A DNA stretch of 64,000 nt from an uncultured Anaerolineales bacterium (GCA_964629085.1 CAZVPR010000006.1:21122-85121); one strand, 5' to 3'. Shown: positions 12,529 through 22,442, numbered from the stretch's first letter. Numbers and translations are program-made. Notes: a model not told the origin generated them from the letters alone.

Positions 12529-12603
12529 GGCGAGGTAGCTCAGTGGAAGAGCAGGGGACTCATAAGCCCTTGGCCGTGGGTTCGACTCCCACCCTCGCCA
12601 CCA
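12529..12603 (+). tRNA. tRNA with CAT anticodon (elongator tRNA-Met most likely; Ile2 not excluded)
   Basis: Cloverleaf: GGCGAGG/CCTCGCC acceptor stem, GCTC/GAGC D arm, CTCATAA anticodon loop, GTGGG-TTCGACT-CCCAC T arm, encoded CCA. The paired G1-C72 argues against initiator tRNA. Confidence 0.93.
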
Positions 12604-12609
12604 AACAGG

Positions 12610-12638
12610 GCCCTGTAACTGTGAAGTTCAGGGCTTTT
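12610..12638 (+). terminator. Putative terminator after the tRNA
   Basis: gccctg.aact-gtga-agtt.cagggc hairpin followed by tttt. Confidence 0.5.
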
Positions 12639-12665
12639 CGTTTACTTTCATGCTGGGTCAATTCG

Positions 12666-14621
12666 ATGAATTTTAGGAAATGGATTATTCTGGCAATCGC
12701 GGAGGGGCTTATTTGCATATTGGTTTTATTGATCCCAGCCAGCGAGGCTTCAGCCACTGTTTTCCTGCGGTATTCATTCCAACGCCTGGTGCTGGTCTTT
12801 GCTGTTGTTGGGATCATAGCTGTAATTCTCTTTTTTAACCATTTAGCCAGCCGCCAATCACCGGCATTGGAAAAGCCCAGAAATCGACTGCTAGAGTTTT
12901 TGCAAACCGAAACCAACGTTAGGGGATTGTTGCTTGTGGGTACCTCCGGTGCCCTGGTCTGCCTTTACCTGCTCATTTCCTGGTCCACAATCGATCCCTT
13001 ATACCAGGGCATCATCCTAAAGATTACCCCGATCTTGATTTGGTTCTTATTGATCGGCGTCCAAACGGTCTTTGGCATTGTTTCTTGGGGCAATGATTAC
13101 AACCGAGAATATCAGACCGAAATAATCCCCATCAATCAATCCGTGGATTTCATCAGAGAGATTGGAATTGAAATATTTGTACTCCTTGTAATCATTGGAT
13201 CTCAATTGGCCTACATCCCACACCGCTTTTGGGAAATTCGGCCGCTGGTTTTGAAGTTTTCCCCGTTGATCATTTTTGGATTGATCGTCCTTGCCAGACT
13301 AATCCCCAAGGCTTACCAGAAAATCTCGAAGCATCAACCCATTAAATTCGTTTTTGCGGGCGTCCTGCTGATTGGCTTTATCACTCTGGGAGCGACCTTT
13401 TACAATACGGCAGAAAAACACTCCCGTGAAGTAAACTCGGACTTGCTGGCCGATCAAAGCGCGTACGTCAAATTTTCCTACAAGGCAGCCGAATCAGGGT
13501 TCCGGTACACTGGCAACCGCAATCAAATGCCCCTGTATTTATTTTTACAGGCCTTGTTCATCAATCCAGATAACGATCGTGAGCAGACTTTTTGGGTGGG
13601 AAAACAAGTCAACATCGTTTTGACGATCATCCTTTTGGTTGCGCTATTTTTTTTCGTCCGAAAATATCTTCCACTATTTGAAACAACTCTCCTGGTATTG
13701 ATCACAGCTTTTTCGGTCTTCATCTTTAAATCGGCCTATTTCACAGCGGAAAACTTGTATTATTTCTTGAGTTTCGTGGGTTTTGCGATGATGTGCCGTA
13801 TGCTGATAAAGCCTAATCTTTCGCTGGCATTGGTGACTGGCTTCGTCTTGGGATTGGGTCATCTAACTAAGGCATCCATCATCCCCGGACTGATGATTTT
13901 TTTGGTTGTATACGCGATCAAATTGATCTTCGAGAAATTCGAAAATTGGAGAAGCAAATTAATCCAGGGTTTTGTGGTGCTGGCCGTTTTTATGGTCACA
14001 TTGCTTCCATACGGTTTGGAAAGTAAAAAAACATACGGAGATTTCTTCTACAATGTCAATTACATCGTGATGTGGTATGACACCTGGGAGCAAGCTGTGG
14101 CCCAGGCCGACCATTCATCGGGAGACCCAGAATGGCATAAGATACCTTCAGAGGAAATCTCCGGGCCAAGGAAATACCTCCAGGAACACTCAGCCGCCCA
14201 AATACGAGATCGCATTTTTTATGGTATTCAACGGCAGACCGAGAATATTCGCTATCAGTTCAATTTCTTCAATTATCCCGTTATCTATTTTCTGGCGGTT
14301 GGACTATTGTTTTTATTTCATGCCAATAATGGCTGGCAATTGATAAAAGGATATTATTTCCTGATTGGATTTGTCCTGCTTTTTCTGGTCGGATATTTCA
14401 GTTCCTTCGTTTGGTATTCTGCCATTGCCAGCCTTTGGCGTTTTATATACGGGCTGCACCTGCCATTTATGTTCAGCATGTACATCAGCATCAACTGTCT
14501 TGTTGGGAAACCGGAAAACCATTTATCAAGGCTGATCAATTTCATCGTGACAATTATGCTTGTGTTGGATATCTGGTATGTTCTTGAGATTGGTTTATTC
14601 TTACAAAACTTTGCTTCATAA
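12666..14621 (+). CDS. Polytopic membrane protein, GT-C fold glycosyltransferase-like (ArnT/PMT family)
   Basis: Many TM helices, acidic DQSAY in the first large loop, RNQMPLY, AENLYY and HLTKAS patterns typical of GT-C proteins. The track start at 12543 lies inside the tRNA, so the ATG at 12666 is used. Confidence 0.6.
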   Translation: MNFRKWIILAIAEGLICILVLLIPASEASATVFLRYSFQRLVLVFAVVGIIAVILFFNHLASRQSPALEKPRNRLLEFLQTETNVRGLLLVGTSGALVCLYLLISWSTIDPLYQGIILKITPILIWFLLIGVQTVFGIVSWGNDYNREYQTEIIPINQSVDFIREIGIEIFVLLVIIGSQLAYIPHRFWEIRPLVLKFSPLIIFGLIVLARLIPKAYQKISKHQPIKFVFAGVLLIGFITLGATFYNTAEKHSREVNSDLLADQSAYVKFSYKAAESGFRYTGNRNQMPLYLFLQALFINPDNDREQTFWVGKQVNIVLTIILLVALFFFVRKYLPLFETTLLVLITAFSVFIFKSAYFTAENLYYFLSFVGFAMMCRMLIKPNLSLALVTGFVLGLGHLTKASIIPGLMIFLVVYAIKLIFEKFENWRSKLIQGFVVLAVFMVTLLPYGLESKKTYGDFFYNVNYIVMWYDTWEQAVAQADHSSGDPEWHKIPSEEISGPRKYLQEHSAAQIRDRIFYGIQRQTENIRYQFNFFNYPVIYFLAVGLLFLFHANNGWQLIKGYYFLIGFVLLFLVGYFSSFVWYSAIASLWRFIYGLHLPFMFSMYISINCLVGKPENHLSRLINFIVTIMLVLDIWYVLEIGLFLQNFAS

Positions 14622-14726
14622 GAAAAATCCACACCCAGATCTATTGGATGCCAGGATGAAGCCATCACATTTTGGCAAGAGTATTTATCCAAACAACCCG
14701 GTTTCTTTTGCGTCTTTTCATCGAAT

Positions 14727-15584
14727 TCACAGAAAGCGTTTTGAATGATAAAAAGGCTCTAAGCGTTTGCCTGCGCCCAGGATTTCCCCCCGCTCCCACA
14801 TCTGGCGATGGGCTATTGCTTGTTCAGCACGCCCGGTTTTGTCTTGTTGCCATGTTTTACGCAGAAAGGCGTAATCATAGAGGATCATCCGCAATTGTTT
14901 TTCGTCCAAGCTGTATCCTGGGCGCAAACTCCAATAACACTGAACCGCATCCTTGACAAGCAGAGGGGGTAATTGCAAATTAGAAACCAGAGGCTTGGCT
15001 GTACTCAAAAAAACGGACGCAGGAGGAAAATCTTCTCCATATAGTGCAAGCAAAGCTTCATGATAGGTATTTGCGCCAGAATTATTTGCAGCTTCGAGTA
15101 GCCATTCCCATGGTGAACCCAAATCGGGAACCACATAGAACCAAAGTGTGTGAGCATCATCTGCGGTCGTTTCAGCAATTAGTTTTTCCCCAATATCTTT
15201 AAGCTGAGGAATGTACTGACTGCAAGCCATTCTCACCCGCCAACCTGAACTCCTATAATGTTCAATGGCCACAGATCCAGCTATCCGCTCTTCAACTTGA
15301 TCCCATATATCTTTGTGGGTAGTGGTTGCCAGAAATTGGGTTGGATCTTTCAGGGGTACAAAAAGATGTTTGATCCCATGTGTGAAGAACAATTCGACAC
15401 ATCGATGCAACTCCCACCAAATCCAATTGACAAAATCATCTCCAGAAATTGGAACATCTGCAAGCTCAGCCGCGCTGCGCGCCCCCGAAACAGCATAAAT
15501 AAGGGTTTTAGGTGCATGGGGACGAACTTCCACCAAAGATGCTTCAGAGAATTCTCGTAGAGAGGGAGTAGGTTCTGTTTTCAT
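14727..15584 (-). CDS. Rv3378c-like (tuberculosinyl transferase / cis-prenyltransferase fold) protein, paralog B
   Basis: Recalled similarity to M. tuberculosis Rv3378c: EF...PK, LFFTHGIKHL, LYGE, LRMILYDYAFLR (Rv3378c LRRILYDHIYLR) and C-terminal ILGAG...FY. Clear paralog of 18198-19076. Confidence 0.72.
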   Translation of the reverse strand: MKTEPTPSLREFSEASLVEVRPHAPKTLIYAVSGARSAAELADVPISGDDFVNWIWWELHRCVELFFTHGIKHLFVPLKDPTQFLATTTHKDIWDQVEERIAGSVAIEHYRSSGWRVRMACSQYIPQLKDIGEKLIAETTADDAHTLWFYVVPDLGSPWEWLLEAANNSGANTYHEALLALYGEDFPPASVFLSTAKPLVSNLQLPPLLVKDAVQCYWSLRPGYSLDEKQLRMILYDYAFLRKTWQQDKTGRAEQAIAHRQMWERGEILGAGKRLEPFYHSKRFL

Positions 15585-15886
15585 TCTTGGTTTCTCAATC
15601 CGTTGATTTGCTATCCGGACACAGCAATTTTGGGAATGCGACCCTTTGGTCTGTTTTCTGAATCAAGTGTAGAATCGCCTGTCATTGATCCCTAATTTAG
15701 AATTATTTTTCCATGGTATCAAATTTTGGGTAATTATACGATTGTCCTTGTATAACAGCAATGAATTCCTTAAAATCTTAGCATTGCACTTTGCAGAAAT
15801 AGGACGCTGCGCAGGAAATAATTTTGAAAAGCAGAGCGCAATTTGATAGAATTACAGAAACGAATTGCAGAGGAGAGGATAGCAGT

Positions 15887-16480
15887 ATGCCCCAAATGCT
15901 AATTGCGACAACGAATCGTTTGAAAGCTCAGCTTTATACTCCAATTTTCGAACAATACAGTTTTGATGTAATTACTCTCAACGAGATACTTTCATCAGGA
16001 CTTCCACCAGTCGAAGATGGTCTTACAGCTGTCGATAATGCAGTCATCAAAGCGCGCCATTATCATTCACCAGAAAATTCGTGGGTTTTTGGGGATGATG
16101 TCGGTTTAGAGATTCAAGCGCTAAACAATGAACCCGGCGTTCAGCAGCGCCGATGGGGAGGAAGGTTTTCTGACGACGTCGATGATCAGGATTGGCTCAA
16201 TTACCTTTTAGATCGCATGCGTAACATATCCCCATCAGAGCGAACAGCTGAATTTGTAGACGGTTGGGCGCTTATTGACCCTGAAGGGAATGTTCATACC
16301 CGCGAATTACGGGTATCTTTCGAGATTGCTGAAGAGCCTATCCGCTCAATGGTTCCAGGCTCTCCTGTGATGGCAGTCGCGATTGGCCTGCCTCAAAAAC
16401 CGGCTGAGATGTTTGCTCTAACCAAAAATAAATGGGATGAATGGGGTATTTTATCCGAGTTGTTAGATTCTGGGAGATAA
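15887..16480 (+). CDS. Ham1/ITPase-like NTP pyrophosphatase (divergent)
   Basis: LIATTNRLK, EDGLTAVDNAVIKA and DDVGLEIQALNNEPGV motifs. RBS before the ATG at 15887. Lacks the FGYDP and SHR motifs. Confidence 0.75.
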   Translation: MPQMLIATTNRLKAQLYTPIFEQYSFDVITLNEILSSGLPPVEDGLTAVDNAVIKARHYHSPENSWVFGDDVGLEIQALNNEPGVQQRRWGGRFSDDVDDQDWLNYLLDRMRNISPSERTAEFVDGWALIDPEGNVHTRELRVSFEIAEEPIRSMVPGSPVMAVAIGLPQKPAEMFALTKNKWDEWGILSELLDSGR

Positions 16481-16491
16481 GGAAAACAAAG

Positions 16492-17745
16492 ATGGGAACA
16501 CAAACAGATGTTCAACTTGCCGTAGAAAGTCAAGTGCAAATGATCAAGCAATTGATTGCTGGTCTTAGGCCACAAATTCAAAAGGCCATCAGTGGAGATG
16601 TTGCCAATAATTTGGAAAGGATTTATTTAGTAGGGTGCGGCGATTCCTATTACGCATCGTTGGGTGTGCGCATGTTTTTTGAGAAATATATAGGAATACC
16701 AACGGAGCCTGTGCCAGCAATGCAATTTTCCCGCTATATTGTTGATCATATCCCTAAAAACTCGCTAGTGATTGCAGTATCAAATGGGGGCCGGGTTTCG
16801 CGCACGATAGAGGCGGTAGTTCGCGCTCGAAAGCGAGGAATTCTCACAATTGCTGCTACGGGTTATCCGGATAGACCGTTGGCACAAAAGGCCGATGCTA
16901 CGATCCTTGGAAATTTACCGAATGTGCGTGAAGCCATGGACGCGTTAAAAAAAGCTGTCGAATCGGGGAAATTATCCAGCAATGATATGCAGCTATCAAA
17001 ACCAGGGGCAGCCTTGCGGGTTGCGGAGGTTTTAGGCATAGGCGGCGATGTAAGTTTGCTGCTGCTCAGTTTGGCAGCCTACATGGCAAGCATTGTCACA
17101 TTGTATTTACTGGGCATTCACATCGCAAAGCTGCGCGGTGCGCAAAACGAGAATGAGGCATCAAAACTGGAAAATGAAATGTTACGATTTGCCGAAATTC
17201 TTTACCCAACTACCTCTCTGAATACACCAAAAGCAAATGCCTTAGCAAAAACCTTTGAGCAACACGACACATTCATAATTTTGGGCAGCGGCCCAAGTTA
17301 TGCTACCGCTCTGGTTGCGGCAGCCAAATTGTTCGAATTACCACAGCTAAATGGCGTTCCACAAGAATTGGAAGAGTGGGCCCATCAGCAATTCTTCTTC
17401 ACCCGGCCCGGAAAAAGCATAATCTTTGTCATAGTGCCGCCAGGCAATAGCCGCGATCGAGCAATTGAGCAGATCAAAGGCATGAAAGAGCTAGGAGCCA
17501 CAGTGATAGCAATATGCGATGCTGCAGATGACGAGATACTCGCATTAGCCGATGATGCTATGCCAATACAGGGACAAATGCTAGAAGAATTCACACCATT
17601 GGCGTATGTGATTCCTGGTCAATTGTTCGCGTTTTCCATCTTGCATTCACGGGGACAGCCACCAATGCCACCACCACTAGATTTTCAACGGTTGATGGAA
17701 ATCAATTTCAAACAAATCTATCAAAGTAACATTTGGGATGAGTAA
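16492..17745 (+). CDS. Double SIS-domain sugar-phosphate isomerase/deglycase-like protein (GlmS/FrlB/AgaS-like)
   Basis: IYLVGCGDS, AVSNGGRVSRTIEA, LGSGPSYATA and EEWAH motifs. No glutaminase domain. Starts 11 nt after the Ham1-like stop. Confidence 0.8.
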   Translation: MGTQTDVQLAVESQVQMIKQLIAGLRPQIQKAISGDVANNLERIYLVGCGDSYYASLGVRMFFEKYIGIPTEPVPAMQFSRYIVDHIPKNSLVIAVSNGGRVSRTIEAVVRARKRGILTIAATGYPDRPLAQKADATILGNLPNVREAMDALKKAVESGKLSSNDMQLSKPGAALRVAEVLGIGGDVSLLLLSLAAYMASIVTLYLLGIHIAKLRGAQNENEASKLENEMLRFAEILYPTTSLNTPKANALAKTFEQHDTFIILGSGPSYATALVAAAKLFELPQLNGVPQELEEWAHQQFFFTRPGKSIIFVIVPPGNSRDRAIEQIKGMKELGATVIAICDAADDEILALADDAMPIQGQMLEEFTPLAYVIPGQLFAFSILHSRGQPPMPPPLDFQRLMEINFKQIYQSNIWDE

Positions 17746-17854
17746 AATTCCCGCCCCTCGTTCCCTCGATGGCAGCAGTTTTCTTGACCGCCTAATAACT
17801 CTCAAACATTAAAATTTATACAGAATTCTTACTCGGAGGGATAAACACTGGCGA

Positions 17855-18229
17855 TCATACTGGTGATGCGAAAATTTTTGCGACGATATTTCGTAATTCC
17901 GCAAATCCAATTGGTTTTTGCTTAGCAAATGCAATCCTGGGATCTGTGGCGGCATTTTCTATCCATTCACCAAATGTTGATACAACAATAAGTTTAGCGT
18001 GATTCAAGCGTCCATCAGATTTGATATATTCCAATACATGATGCCCCGATTTAATGGTCAGGTGTAATTCCAGGATCACTATTTCTGGAATATTGTGTTG
18101 CAGCCAATCTATTGCATCCCTACCATTGGTCACCAATTCAACGTTGAAATTTTCTTCTAGTGCAATTTTGTAGGCATATGCTAAATTAGTATCCCCTTCA
18201 ACGAGAAGTATAACTGGCTTTATTTTCAT
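17855..18229 (-). CDS. Single-domain receiver lacking the phospho-acceptor Asp (pseudo-receiver)
   Basis: CheY-like pattern ILLVEGD...IVILELHL...VVST...KPIG, with Glu at the canonical Asp site. Confidence 0.8.
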   Translation of the reverse strand: MKIKPVILLVEGDTNLAYAYKIALEENFNVELVTNGRDAIDWLQHNIPEIVILELHLTIKSGHHVLEYIKSDGRLNHAKLIVVSTFGEWIENAATDPRIAFAKQKPIGFAELRNIVAKIFASPV

Positions 18230-19076
18230 TATCGTTCTCTTTAGCCTCTGCAGGAAAGACTGGATACCAAAAGGGGCCGACTCTTTTCCCTAAACCCATT
18301 ATCGCATCAGTGTGCATTTCATCCAAAGTCAAATCGGTCTGTTCATCAACTTCAGGATTTCGTGTTATCACAAAATCGTATAGTATCTTTAGGATATCAA
18401 TTTCGTCAGTTAGATAGCCTGGTTTCTGAAGCCAATAGGTACTCGCGAATTCTGCCATCAAAATGGGAGGGCAAACCACAGCGGAGATTACTGGTTTGCC
18501 AAAGCCAACGAATAATTCCACAGGAGGGATTTCCTGGCCAAATTGTTTCTGAATGAGTTCGGCCTGGGTCGTCGCGCCTGGCCGTGCTGCTTTCAGCAAG
18601 TTTTCATAATGGACGCCATAGGTAGAAGTTGCAAAAAAATAAACTGTAACTGAATACTCTTCGTCTGAGAACGTATCATTCAGATTATTTCCAGTAGTTG
18701 CTAATTCTTGAATGTGATCATCCCAAATTAAACAACATTTCCAACCTAATTTTTTGAAAATCGCAATAGATTTTTCGCTGGCTAGGCCCTTCGCAACCAT
18801 GGAAACCAGGCCTTCGCGGTATCCCGAGGTAGTTTCAGCCCATTGTGTTGGAACTATGGCATGTGTAATAATGTGTTGAACCCCATACTTGGCAAATAAT
18901 GAAAAACACTTGATCATCTGCGCAAAAGACCAAGATACATATTCGTCTTGGTCCATTATGCCCGCCAGTGCAGCAGCTCTGCGCGTGCCCCCCGCAGCGA
19001 ATATGATAGATTTTGGAGCTAAAAGCGATATTTGTTCAACAGGAGTATCTCGGAACTCATCAAAAGAAATTTTCAT
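18198..19076 (-). CDS. Rv3378c-like (tuberculosinyl transferase / cis-prenyltransferase fold) protein, paralog A
   Basis: ISFDEFRDTPV...PK...GGTRR (Rv3378c VSEKEFLDLPL...PK...DGTRR), LFVGFGK (MFIGFGR), LKILYD and IMGLG...FWY. Located in an operon with a class II cyclase. Confidence 0.78.
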   Translation of the reverse strand: MKISFDEFRDTPVEQISLLAPKSIIFAAGGTRRAAALAGIMDQDEYVSWSFAQMIKCFSLFAKYGVQHIITHAIVPTQWAETTSGYREGLVSMVAKGLASEKSIAIFKKLGWKCCLIWDDHIQELATTGNNLNDTFSDEEYSVTVYFFATSTYGVHYENLLKAARPGATTQAELIQKQFGQEIPPVELFVGFGKPVISAVVCPPILMAEFASTYWLQKPGYLTDEIDILKILYDFVITRNPEVDEQTDLTLDEMHTDAIMGLGKRVGPFWYPVFPAEAKENDNENKASYTSR

Positions 19077-20443
19077 GAATCGCCATCTAAAGGGTGATAC
19101 GATTGAGGAAGAGACACCGTGAAAATGGAACCTTTTCCTTTTTCAGATTTAAGCTCTATCTTGCCACCATACCGAGAGACAATATCGTCAATGATTGCCA
19201 AACCAAGACCTGAACCGGGTATTGTCGATTGGCTTGCTTCCTGGCCTCGATAAAATCTTTCAAAAATGTGGGGAATATCCTCATCGTGAATTCCGTCTCC
19301 GCTATCCTCCACCTGGATGATGACCAAATCATCCTTAATGTCAGTGCTCACCTTTATAAAACCCTCGGATGTGTACCGAATACCGTTTACAACAAGATTA
19401 TTTAAGATTTGCAGCACATGTTTAGAATCTGCTTGCAATGGAGGCATATCTTCCTGCAAACTTTGCGTTAGTTCCAATCCCTTTGATTCTGCCTGGAGAA
19501 TATTGGATTGAACAACTTGCTGAACCAGGGTATTCAAATCAACGGATTGAATGGAAACATCCTTTTCTTCGGAAGATTCTAAACGGGATAAATCAAGGAT
19601 ATCTTCAAGCAAACCATCTAATTGATCAGATACTTCAACAAGCACATCCAGGTATCGTTTATTCTTATCCGGATTGCTGCTTAATTGCAGCATTTCTAGA
19701 TAGATTTTTATATTGCTAACTGGGGTGCGAAGCTCATGGGAAACATCCGATACAAATTTTGATTTCAAAAGATCCAGGGTTTTTAATTCATCGTTGGCTT
19801 CAGCCAACTCTATATTTGCATTTTTCAGTTCTTTTGTGCGCTCAATTACCAGTGAGTCCAGTCTATCGGTTATTTCCTGCTCTTTCCTTAAAGCTAGCGT
19901 GCGGTCCACAATTGCTTTTTCAAGATTGTTGGCGGCAAGCCAGGCAACAAAGGCAAATGCAAAAAATGCGATCATGCCAAACGGGGAAAATTCCCAATCA
20001 ATTTGCACTATCCCCCCAAACCACATGTAAAGGTGGACGACGGTCAAATAGGTGGCCACAATAAAGCTAGCATAGTTTCGAAGAACAAAGCTGGCCACCA
20101 TAATAGGGAAAATAAACATAAACAGAGATCGCCCGACAAGTATTTCCCGTGGTTCGTCAGCAACCAGAAAACTCATGGACAGAACGAACACAAATAAACT
20201 ACCTGCCAGCACCACATGCCCTTTGCGGTTTATCATGTAGAGAATGAGTATGATCAAGTTTATGACAACCAAAACTAAATTAAATGTCGCCGTCTGCTCT
20301 AGCACATTTAGCAGTTCAGTGATTATTATGAGCAATAACGAAAATCCTGTAATAACCCCGGTCCCAATGATGATTCTGTTTAACAACTCAAATCTCAATT
20401 GGTCTAAGCCATATGATGTGTCAAACAGTCTTTCACGATTCAT
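19073..20443 (-). CDS. Intramembrane-sensing histidine kinase
   Basis: About 5-6 closely spaced TM helices with no large extracytoplasmic domain, coiled coil, SHELRTP H-box, NLVVNGIRYT, DSGDG, FERFYR and GSGLGL. Confidence 0.9.
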   Translation of the reverse strand: MNRERLFDTSYGLDQLRFELLNRIIIGTGVITGFSLLLIIITELLNVLEQTATFNLVLVVINLIILILYMINRKGHVVLAGSLFVFVLSMSFLVADEPREILVGRSLFMFIFPIMVASFVLRNYASFIVATYLTVVHLYMWFGGIVQIDWEFSPFGMIAFFAFAFVAWLAANNLEKAIVDRTLALRKEQEITDRLDSLVIERTKELKNANIELAEANDELKTLDLLKSKFVSDVSHELRTPVSNIKIYLEMLQLSSNPDKNKRYLDVLVEVSDQLDGLLEDILDLSRLESSEEKDVSIQSVDLNTLVQQVVQSNILQAESKGLELTQSLQEDMPPLQADSKHVLQILNNLVVNGIRYTSEGFIKVSTDIKDDLVIIQVEDSGDGIHDEDIPHIFERFYRGQEASQSTIPGSGLGLAIIDDIVSRYGGKIELKSEKGKGSIFTVSLPQSYHPLDGDS

Positions 20444-22008: not shown

Positions 22009-22442
22009 TCGTCTATGCTCGATTATGTTTATCCTTTGATATTGAATTCTATATTTGAACAAGGTCCGGAGTTAATTGGGTAATAGGGCGTCTGAAGGGT
22101 ACTATTCCCTCTCGAAAAAATTGCCACCCGAATAAGGCAACCGGAACCAAGGCATTCCCATGGGAGGCAAATTATCATACATTAATCAATACTTCACAAC
22201 AAAACTTGGACCAGTCGTTTCATTATTCCATTCCCACAGGTCAAACCATGACTGATAGATCTCCCAGTATGATTATTACCAATTAGTACGGTTCGAGAAT
22301 TTTAACATAGAAAGTTTCTAAAAATCAGGTAAAATTACATATCTGTAAGGAACATCAATCATAACCTTTGATTAGAATTTCTGGAGTATTCCAACAATTA
22401 TTCTCTCCAGTATTCGAAATACTCACGAAAAGGCGAAAATAC

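Follow-up and report, generated by a model that had tools for sequence, protein, structure and literature searches.

Two Rv3378c-family paralogs without the P-loop aspartate in an Anaerolineales terpene cluster: reciprocal decay and a probable division of roles

Introduction

Can two paralogous proteins of the Rv3378c type still act as enzymes when neither carries the aspartate of the P-loop? The question is raised by a 64,000-nucleotide stretch of DNA from an uncultured Anaerolineales bacterium (GCA_964629085.1 CAZVPR010000006.1:21122-85121), hereafter the window, in which all coordinates below are given. It encodes two relatives of Rv3378c from Mycobacterium tuberculosis, called here paralogs A and B, close to a class II terpene cyclase and a sensor histidine kinase. 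A reading of this DNA made from the sequence alone (the sequence-only reading) had named Asp34, Arg37, and Arg38 as the functional residues of Rv3378c and had taken the loss of Asp34 in both paralogs as a sign either of different chemistry, possibly in a heterodimer, or of non-catalytic terpenoid-binding proteins that relay cyclase output to the kinase. The explanation favoured here, with slightly better than even confidence, is that A and B are zeta-fold terpene synthases of the kolavelool-synthase/Rv3378c family, A being the working enzyme and B a non-catalytic protein that is likelier to be a dimer partner than a relic.

Motifs and fold of the two paralogs

HMMER alignment to the Rv3378c chains in the PDB confirmed that GGTRR in A and SGARS in B stand at the site of Rv3378c DGTRR, as the sequence-only reading had described. 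Paralog A (P0002, 292 aa; 18198..19076, minus strand), an open reading frame (ORF) assigned by homology as an A-type member of the HaKS/Rv3378c family, matched 3wqk at E 1.9e-8, with FAAGGTRRA opposite FPFDGTRRW. Asp34 is thus replaced by Gly29 and both arginines are kept in the P-loop (residues 29-33; 18978..18992, minus strand). Paralog B (P0001, 285 aa; 14727..15584, minus strand), likewise an open ORF assigned by homology, as a B-type (HaKS-like) ortholog, matched the same chains at E 8.4e-6 to 2.3e-5. Its segment YAVSGARSA is aligned to FPFDGTRRW, so that the degenerate P-loop (residues 33-37; 15474..15488, minus strand) carries Ser in place of Asp, Ala in place of Thr, and Ser in place of the second Arg. 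An acidic residue at the Asp34 site, looked for in these alignments, is absent from both proteins (Gly in A, Ser in B). The residue equivalences to Rv3378c given throughout rest on three concordant HMMER alignments together with secondary structure.

The two paralogs share 29% identity over 277 residues (E 6e-38) and score 333.6 bits (A) and 383.5 bits (B) against the family profile. The C-terminal motifs noticed earlier (PPxL, YW..PGY, ILYD, and GxGKR..PF) were found in both. The AlphaFold2 (AF2) model of A has a predicted local distance difference test score (pLDDT) of 87.9, falling below 50 at residues 245-255, and its best Foldseek matches are the Rv3378c structures (3wql, E 1.3e-14; TM 0.67-0.69), followed by cis-prenyltransferases at E about 1e-9 to 1e-10. 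The model of B has a pLDDT of 89.7, a confidence that is alignment-driven, and its strands and helices come in the order seen in A. No family in Pfam or NCBIfam matched A, B, or P0108, a 289-aa close relative of HaKS retrieved in the search with B. A and B fall outside the canonical enzymes of the undecaprenyl pyrophosphate synthase (UPPS) type, as they have no Pfam family match and no P-loop Asp.

The PDB titles for Rv3378c include a complex with Mg2+ and pyrophosphate (PPi) as well as substrate complexes of the Y51F and Y51F/Y90F variants. At the corresponding positions, A retains GGTRR, Tyr45 (Tyr51 column), Glu81, which is aligned with Rv3378c Asp85, Tyr86 (Tyr90 column), and a C-terminal RVG. 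Its P-loop conforms to the pattern G-[TS]-R-R, whereas that of B does not.

The Asp34 site across the family

The claim that a missing Asp implies other chemistry or no catalysis was not supported once relatives were aligned. A search with A retrieved 81 of them, 79 having the motif column, which reads GGTRR in 65, AGTRR in 9, SGTRR in 3, and GGSRR and TGTRR in 1 each. The corresponding search with B gave 48 relatives, 46 with the column (SGTRR 18, GGTRR 16, AGTRR 6, and GGSRR, SGSRR, and AGSRR 2 each). Asp or Glu occurs at the Asp34 site in 0 of the 79 and 0 of the 46, that is in 0/125, and the Arg-Arg pair is present in all 125. The SGARS of B has no counterpart among the 46, all of which have [ST]RR. 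Judged from these alignments, Gly, Ser, or Ala at the Asp34 site is the norm of a Chloroflexota-centred branch ([GSA]G[TS]RR) and not a lesion.

Searching 1.84 billion cluster representatives (50% identity) with a profile returned 370 proteins at E <= 0.001. Among the best 150 of these 370, the 69 core-family proteins with the column have G in 47, S in 9, A in 8, N in 3, T in 1, and D in 1, and the 50 proteins of an outer Rv3378c-like group have N in 18, D in 16, G in 7, S in 4, E in 3, A in 1, and T in 1. Asn is the commonest residue of the outer group among the representatives listed. Two genomes, G214 (L114/L115) and G055 (L116/L117), each encode one Asn-type protein (FPxNGTRRWF) and one Asp-type protein (PDG[SN]RRLV) on separate contigs. 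Two further cluster representatives, P0169 and P0172, come from separate lineages and have P-loops that decayed independently (NSAQL and NDARS, respectively), with the conserved Glu also lost and the rest well conserved. A literature search found no relevant paper on Asp34 of Rv3378c or on Rv3378c in Chloroflexi.

The most informative relative comes from Herpetosiphon aurantiacus DSM 785. Its locus L065 encodes, in order, a hybrid kinase, a class II cyclase, a family member, a methyltransferase, and a receiver, and the family member is the sole copy in that genome. From genome, copy number, and gene order, we infer that this protein is the kolavelool synthase HaKS (Haur_2146/ABX04786). It is 45% identical to B and 34% identical to A, and its stretch FSSGGSRRKAA puts Gly opposite Asp34. 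According to PMC9440906 and PMC11070974, HaKS makes (+)-kolavelool from kolavenyl diphosphate and functions in yeast, and the O-methylkolavelool cluster of H. aurantiacus is cited in PMC9814783; a literature search under Haur_2146 found no paper. Since HaKS has Gly at the Asp34 site and is reported to be active, a missing Asp is compatible with activity. Ordinary Rv3378c-type activity without the Asp, which the sequence-only reading held to be incompatible with its proposal, is thus reported for a close relative carrying GGSRR.

Reciprocal decay of A and B

Both paralogs are unusual for their family in another respect. Of the 50 columns conserved in at least 85% of 126 full-length members, 11 are changed in A and 10 in B, the family median being 2. 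B is changed at 18 of the 94 columns that are invariant in seven members of its genus, compared with 2 of 94 for its sister sequence from G002, and its terminal branch is 2.5 times as long as the sister's. In a leave-one-out comparison of eight congeners, 2.1-8.8% of congener-invariant columns differ, the value for B being 17.4%. Such counts were preferred to dN/dS because synonymous sites are saturated at the 60% amino-acid identity that separates B from its nearest ortholog.

The losses in B include T35A, R37S (an Arg conserved in 100% of the family), E86A (a Glu conserved in 99% and aligned with Rv3378c Asp85), and a His at the Tyr90 column (position 90). Non-catalytic positions have changed as well (F60H, L79K, W96Q, G100R, and C149F). 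The Phe of B at the Tyr51 column carries little weight, being found also in several otherwise intact orthologs. Since the second Arg, the conserved Glu, and the Tyr90 equivalent are all lost, and lost in B uniquely, B is probably non-catalytic on its own, as far as its residues indicate. The earlier proposal that both paralogs are non-catalytic probably holds for B, on account of these other losses and not of the Asp, and probably does not hold for A, which keeps every N-terminal catalytic-site residue.

The changes in A lie elsewhere. Its segment corresponding to RxTWxxDKxGR (residues 240-256; 18309..18359, minus strand) has been remodelled through T241P, W242E, D245E, K246Q, R249L, and a deletion of about seven residues, so that the motif is lost, while alignment of the two proteins shows B to have it intact as RKTWQQDKTGR (residues 242-252; 14829..14861, minus strand). 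Counted over invariant columns, A is changed at 0/27 in its N-terminal part (20-115) and at 5/6 in its C-terminal part (236-256; p 0.00017). B is changed at 12/37 within residues 25-115 against 6/57 beyond (p 0.014), and at 0/31 within residues 195-256, its overall rate predicting about 6, against 18/63 elsewhere (Fisher p 0.0005); the boundaries of these regions were picked after seeing the data, and the p-values are indicative only. The half in which either paralog has decayed is the half that has stayed intact in the other. The intact C-terminal module of B argues against plain pseudogene drift.

Gene order and history of the cluster

Among 68 related genome loci, a class II cyclase is present in 61 and lies directly upstream of the family member in 54, and a kinase is found within 3 kb in 27. 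The order cyclase-kinase-family member is kept in the window's genus and family, and the kinase lies between cyclase and family member in 6/6 A-type loci having upstream sequence. The link to a co-encoded kinase proposed by the sequence-only reading thus stands in the form of a conserved gene order, both in A-type loci and in the B-type loci of the genus.

Besides the window genome, 9 of 13 genomes of the genus hold the family, seven with one intact copy; in the two others, G013 has two copies, one of them cut by a contig end, and G003 has one gene read as two pieces across masked letters. The congener copies are all B-type, with SGTRR or AGTRR, each directly after a kinase, and where enough flanking sequence was fetched the order is major facilitator superfamily (MFS) transporter-cyclase-kinase-B-type gene. 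In the tree, B is nested in the genus clade, where its sister is the G002 copy, to which it is 60% identical. A belongs to a different subclade and is 50% identical to the copy of G022, which is from another genus. The sensor domain of the window kinase is likewise closest to that of the kinase beside the A-type copy of G022 (110 bits, against 39-70 bits for neighbours of B-type genes), and the window cyclase is closest to the cyclases of congeners (59%).

From these affinities we infer that B is the genus's resident ortholog, displaced from the slot adjoining the kinase. On the simplest reading, an A-type cassette (kinase, A, receiver, SIS, and Ham1) would have recombined into the resident cluster; A would have taken the slot after the kinase, and B, keeping an upstream region of its own, would have ended up 2.6 kb downstream. 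Between 14001 and 20000, G+C is 0.41-0.43, compared with about 0.45-0.52 across most of the window, a composition that fits acquired DNA.

A locus of the A type, L093, carries on one strand the order Ham1-SIS-cyclase-kinase-A-receiver. Its SIS and Ham1 products are 72% and 62% identical to those of the window, in which the two genes are inverted: they lie at 3179-5025 in L093, and their counterpart in the window is at 15824-17745 (plus strand). At a further locus, L094, the SIS gene adjoins the cyclase. A metagenome scan for A-type contexts yielded mostly contigs of 1-2.5 kb.

The locus and its sequence quality

On the minus strand, the genes for cyclase, kinase, A, and receiver follow one another as a translationally coupled operon, with neighbouring start and stop codons that overlap or are at most 8 bases apart. 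The class II terpene cyclase (P0004; 20452..22062, minus strand) is Rv3377c-like by phmmer against the PDB and by Pfam SQHop_cyclase_C/N. It matched 6vpt, titled 'Cyclase' and which we take to be the Rv3377c structure, at E 3.5e-122, and the ent-copalyl diphosphate (ent-CPP) synthase 5bp8 at E 5.6e-47. Translation probably begins at the internal Met19. This cyclase has DGDE in place of the expected DxDD. In a set of 16 related cyclases, the middle Asp of the motif is constant and its final residue varies freely (DSDN 5, DGDD 4, DSDV 2, and others).

The sensor histidine kinase (P0003; 19073..20443, minus strand; Pfam HisKA and HATPase_c) has about 6 hydrophobic segments in its N-terminus according to a hydropathy scan (residues 20-174), and its N-terminal domain is also present in the relatives' kinases that adjoin family members. 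The kinase stop and the start of A overlap by 4 bases. The stand-alone receiver (P0007; 17855..18229, minus strand), a weak match to Pfam Response_reg (34.9 bits), overlaps the 3' end of A by 32 bases. It has Glu at the phospho-acceptor position (ILELHLT vs ILDLHxP) and EGD instead of EDD. Seven related receivers, three after A-type genes and four others, are intact at both places.

B sits 2.6 kb from the operon of A, past two genes of the opposite strand, and 4.9 kb from the cyclase. The two intervening genes encode a double-SIS-domain protein resembling the isomerase half of GlmS (P0005; 16441..17745, plus strand; Pfam SIS, NCBIfam) and a homologue of the Ham1/RdgB family of NTP pyrophosphatases (P0006; 15824..16480, plus strand; Pfam Ham1p_like, E 2.3e-22), the latter divergent from B. 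Downstream of B, a 692-aa ORF (12543-14621, plus strand) has no Pfam match. At the other end of the cluster, the MFS transporter gene that congeners have directly upstream of the cyclase and in the same operon (13762-15096 in L089; 10430-11764 in L090) is absent from the window, where only about 300 bases are present (22063-22367). The window genes beyond this gap, encoding a receiver and an Ig-like-domain protein, are syntenic with those of congeners.

The region 14700-19100 is covered by contigs of four marine-metagenome runs from one study with zero differing letters, and two of the four identical runs are not flagged as possible sources. No RNA run was among those listed as containing this region. 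The identical contigs rule out that the motifs of A and B stem from misassembly. A frameshift in the C-terminal segment of A is ruled out as well, the other two frames being full of stops.

Weighing the explanations

The explanation favoured at the outset assigns different roles to the two paralogs. With every N-terminal catalytic-site residue kept, A is probably the working diterpene synthase of the operon, acting on the cyclase product, as its residues suggest. The cyclase product, a bicyclic prenyl diphosphate, would be bound by A via Arg32/Arg33 and the backbone of the P-loop, with other conserved acids (Glu81 and the invariant Asp234) probably holding Mg2+. Ionisation of the allylic diphosphate would then be followed by capture of the cation by water, giving an alcohol of the kolavelool/isotuberculosinol type, or by another nucleophile. 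B, the genus's original copy, would have lost its own diphosphate site; since its C-terminal half is under tight constraint, it more probably serves as a dimer partner than lingers as a dead relic.

Several points weigh against this assignment, among them the choice of region boundaries mentioned above. A is itself changed at 10 of the 65 columns that are invariant in 24 relatives of its clade, those relatives showing 0-8.5%. The Arg replaced in R249L is 100% conserved in the family and the rest of that segment is lost, so that A alone may be impaired. The C-terminal RxG of B reads RLE (G276E), at a Gly conserved in 97% of the family. The receiver without an acceptor Asp and the missing MFS gene may mean that the whole cluster is decaying in this lineage. 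As for the comparison on which the dispensability of Asp34 turns, the ORF at L065 is taken to be HaKS from genome, copy number, and gene order, and the activity of HaKS is drawn from papers that used the enzyme (PMC9440906, PMC11070974).

The same observations can be read as a stronger or a weaker role for B. In the stronger version, which is less likely than not, A and B form an obligate heterodimer that arose by reciprocal decay after the second copy arrived, with one composite active site as in DHDDS/NgBR: A would supply the pocket (P-loop, Glu81, and Tyr86) and B the RxTWxxDKxGR segment in trans, the site made of the B pocket and the A segment being dead. The heterodimer idea of the sequence-only reading is thus kept alive, now by the complementary pattern of changes (0/27 and 5/6 in A, 12/37 and 0/31 in B), and a complex model was run. 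The predicted complex of A and B scored 0.87, the best of 3 controls scoring 0.00, and so passes a mark that 116 out of 157 solved complexes and 2 out of 215 mismatched pairs attain; contact agreement between runs was at least 74% and partner pLDDT at least 82. The predicted interface takes in the two P-loops (A 32-33 and 36-37; B 34 and 37) together with the C-terminal segments of both proteins (A 247-275; B 247-276), including B residues 247-253, which overlap its RKTWQQDKTGR segment. There are precedents for such contacts. In the decaprenyl diphosphate synthase of M. tuberculosis, Arg292 of the RxG of the counter-subunit is described as reaching the P-loop Asp (PMC6450523), and in the human enzyme the C-terminal tail of inactive NgBR is described as completing the DHDDS site, transverse contacts being also present in homodimers (PMC7573591). 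Nevertheless, the score may reflect memory of solved homodimers and does not separate A/B from A/A or B/B pairing; proteins of the cis-prenyltransferase fold are known as homodimers. Moreover, the tail of B that would serve the good site of A has Glu in place of the RxG Gly, and Rv3378c-type proteins of the outer clade do without the TWxxDKxGR segment entirely. B lies outside the operon, 2.6 kb away and past two opposite-strand genes, and is not co-transcribed with A. The search for an A-type plus B-type pair covered 41 relatives, a 401-genome sample of the phylum, and about 100 fetched loci, and such a pair was seen in the window genome only; congeners mostly carry one intact copy. Three other genomes of the 401-genome sample have two matches: the core-family copies of G165 are both intact, and those of G214 and G055, being of the outer clade, were left out of the decay scoring. 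No second pair of a decayed and an intact copy was found, the multi-copy genomes among the loci keeping their motifs intact. The signs of cluster-wide decay (Glu acceptor and EGD in the receiver, loss of the congeners' MFS gene) speak against an obligate pair too. They would also fit B as a functionless relic, drifting under relaxed selection after A took over, an unlikely outcome that its long branch (2.5 times the sister's), its 18/94 changes against 2/94 with non-catalytic positions included, and its separation from the operon nonetheless suggest. Against a relic stand the open frame of B, identical in four runs, its AF2 model (pLDDT 89.7, though alignment-driven), and the 0/31 changes at 195-256 where about 6 would be expected.

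Other readings concern what A does. It is quite improbable that A is a transferase and not a synthase of the hydrolase type, moving the terpenyl group to a nucleoside or to a sugar-phosphate-derived acceptor prepared by Ham1 and SIS. The proximity of these two genes to the A-type operon, their place in one string with it in L093, and the adjacency of SIS and cyclase in L094 point that way, and Rv3378c has been described as a tuberculosinyl-adenosine transferase (PMC6450523); yet the Ham1/SIS link is seen in 3 loci only and in 0/68 genome loci, and may be mere synteny among related Anaerolineales. Least probable, and barely credible on present evidence, is that neither A nor B is catalytic and that both bind a prenyl diphosphate or terpenoid so as to signal cyclase output to the kinase. 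This proposal agrees with the membrane-embedded sensor part of the kinase and with the gene order, the kinase gene separating cyclase from family member in each of the 6 A-type loci having upstream sequence, as it does at the genus's B-type loci. Its starting point, however, was the lack of the Asp, a state that is normal in the family and, to judge from HaKS, compatible with activity, and A retains all the conserved pocket residues.

What the locus adds

The newness of the locus is modest, the paralogs being further members of a known but poorly annotated family, with one real oddity in their reciprocal decay. For annotators, a missing Asp does not warrant the call of a dead enzyme in a family that comprises at least 370 cluster representatives (E <= 0.001) and has no Pfam or NCBIfam model. 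The question raised in its place is how an allylic diphosphate is ionised without the Asp, to which HaKS, A, and B could provide the answer. Reciprocal decay as seen in A and B is a candidate route by which heteromeric enzymes with a pseudo-subunit arise; if the pairing is true, A/B would be a young bacterial parallel to DHDDS/NgBR in which both parents are still recognisable. Finally, a conserved membrane sensor kinase between cyclase and synthase hints at regulation, or sensing, of a self-made diterpenoid.

Comparison with known systems

The closest known system is HaKS of the O-methylkolavelool cluster (Haur_2145-2147). It belongs to the same family, has a P-loop without Asp (GGSRR), and is encoded directly after an Rv3377c-like class II cyclase with a kinase and a receiver flanking. 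A number of differences can be noted. HaKS is a single copy that keeps all family motifs except that the Arg of RxG is Gln; its kinase is of the hybrid type, is encoded upstream of the cyclase, and has no match to the sensor domain of the window kinase; and its cluster has a methyltransferase, whereas the window cluster has none.

Rv3378c of M. tuberculosis (PDB 3wqk, 3wql, 4kt8), a tuberculosinol/isotuberculosinol synthase and tuberculosinyl-adenosine transferase, has the same fold, is the best structural match of A, and is paired with an Rv3377c-type cyclase. Its GTRR of the P-loop, its Tyr51 and Tyr90 columns, and ILYD align with the paralogs, but identity is about 18-20%, Asp34 is opposed to Gly in A and Ser in B, and the RxTWxxDKxGR segment is absent from Rv3378c-type relatives. 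The homodimeric UPPS and Rv2361c share the zeta fold, the position of the P-loop, and the C-terminal RxG. In contrast to them, A and B have no Pfam match to the family model and lack the Mg2+-binding Asp called 'invariant' in PMC6450523.

DHDDS/NgBR belongs to the same fold superfamily and likewise has one subunit with a decayed pocket and a retained C-terminal part; the A/B model places the C-terminal segments and the P-loops in the interface. It differs in that the chemistry of A and B involves no chain elongation, that the pairing of A with B is predicted only and is not conserved across genomes, and that what B retains is a family-specific segment and not the RxG tail, its own RxG being altered.

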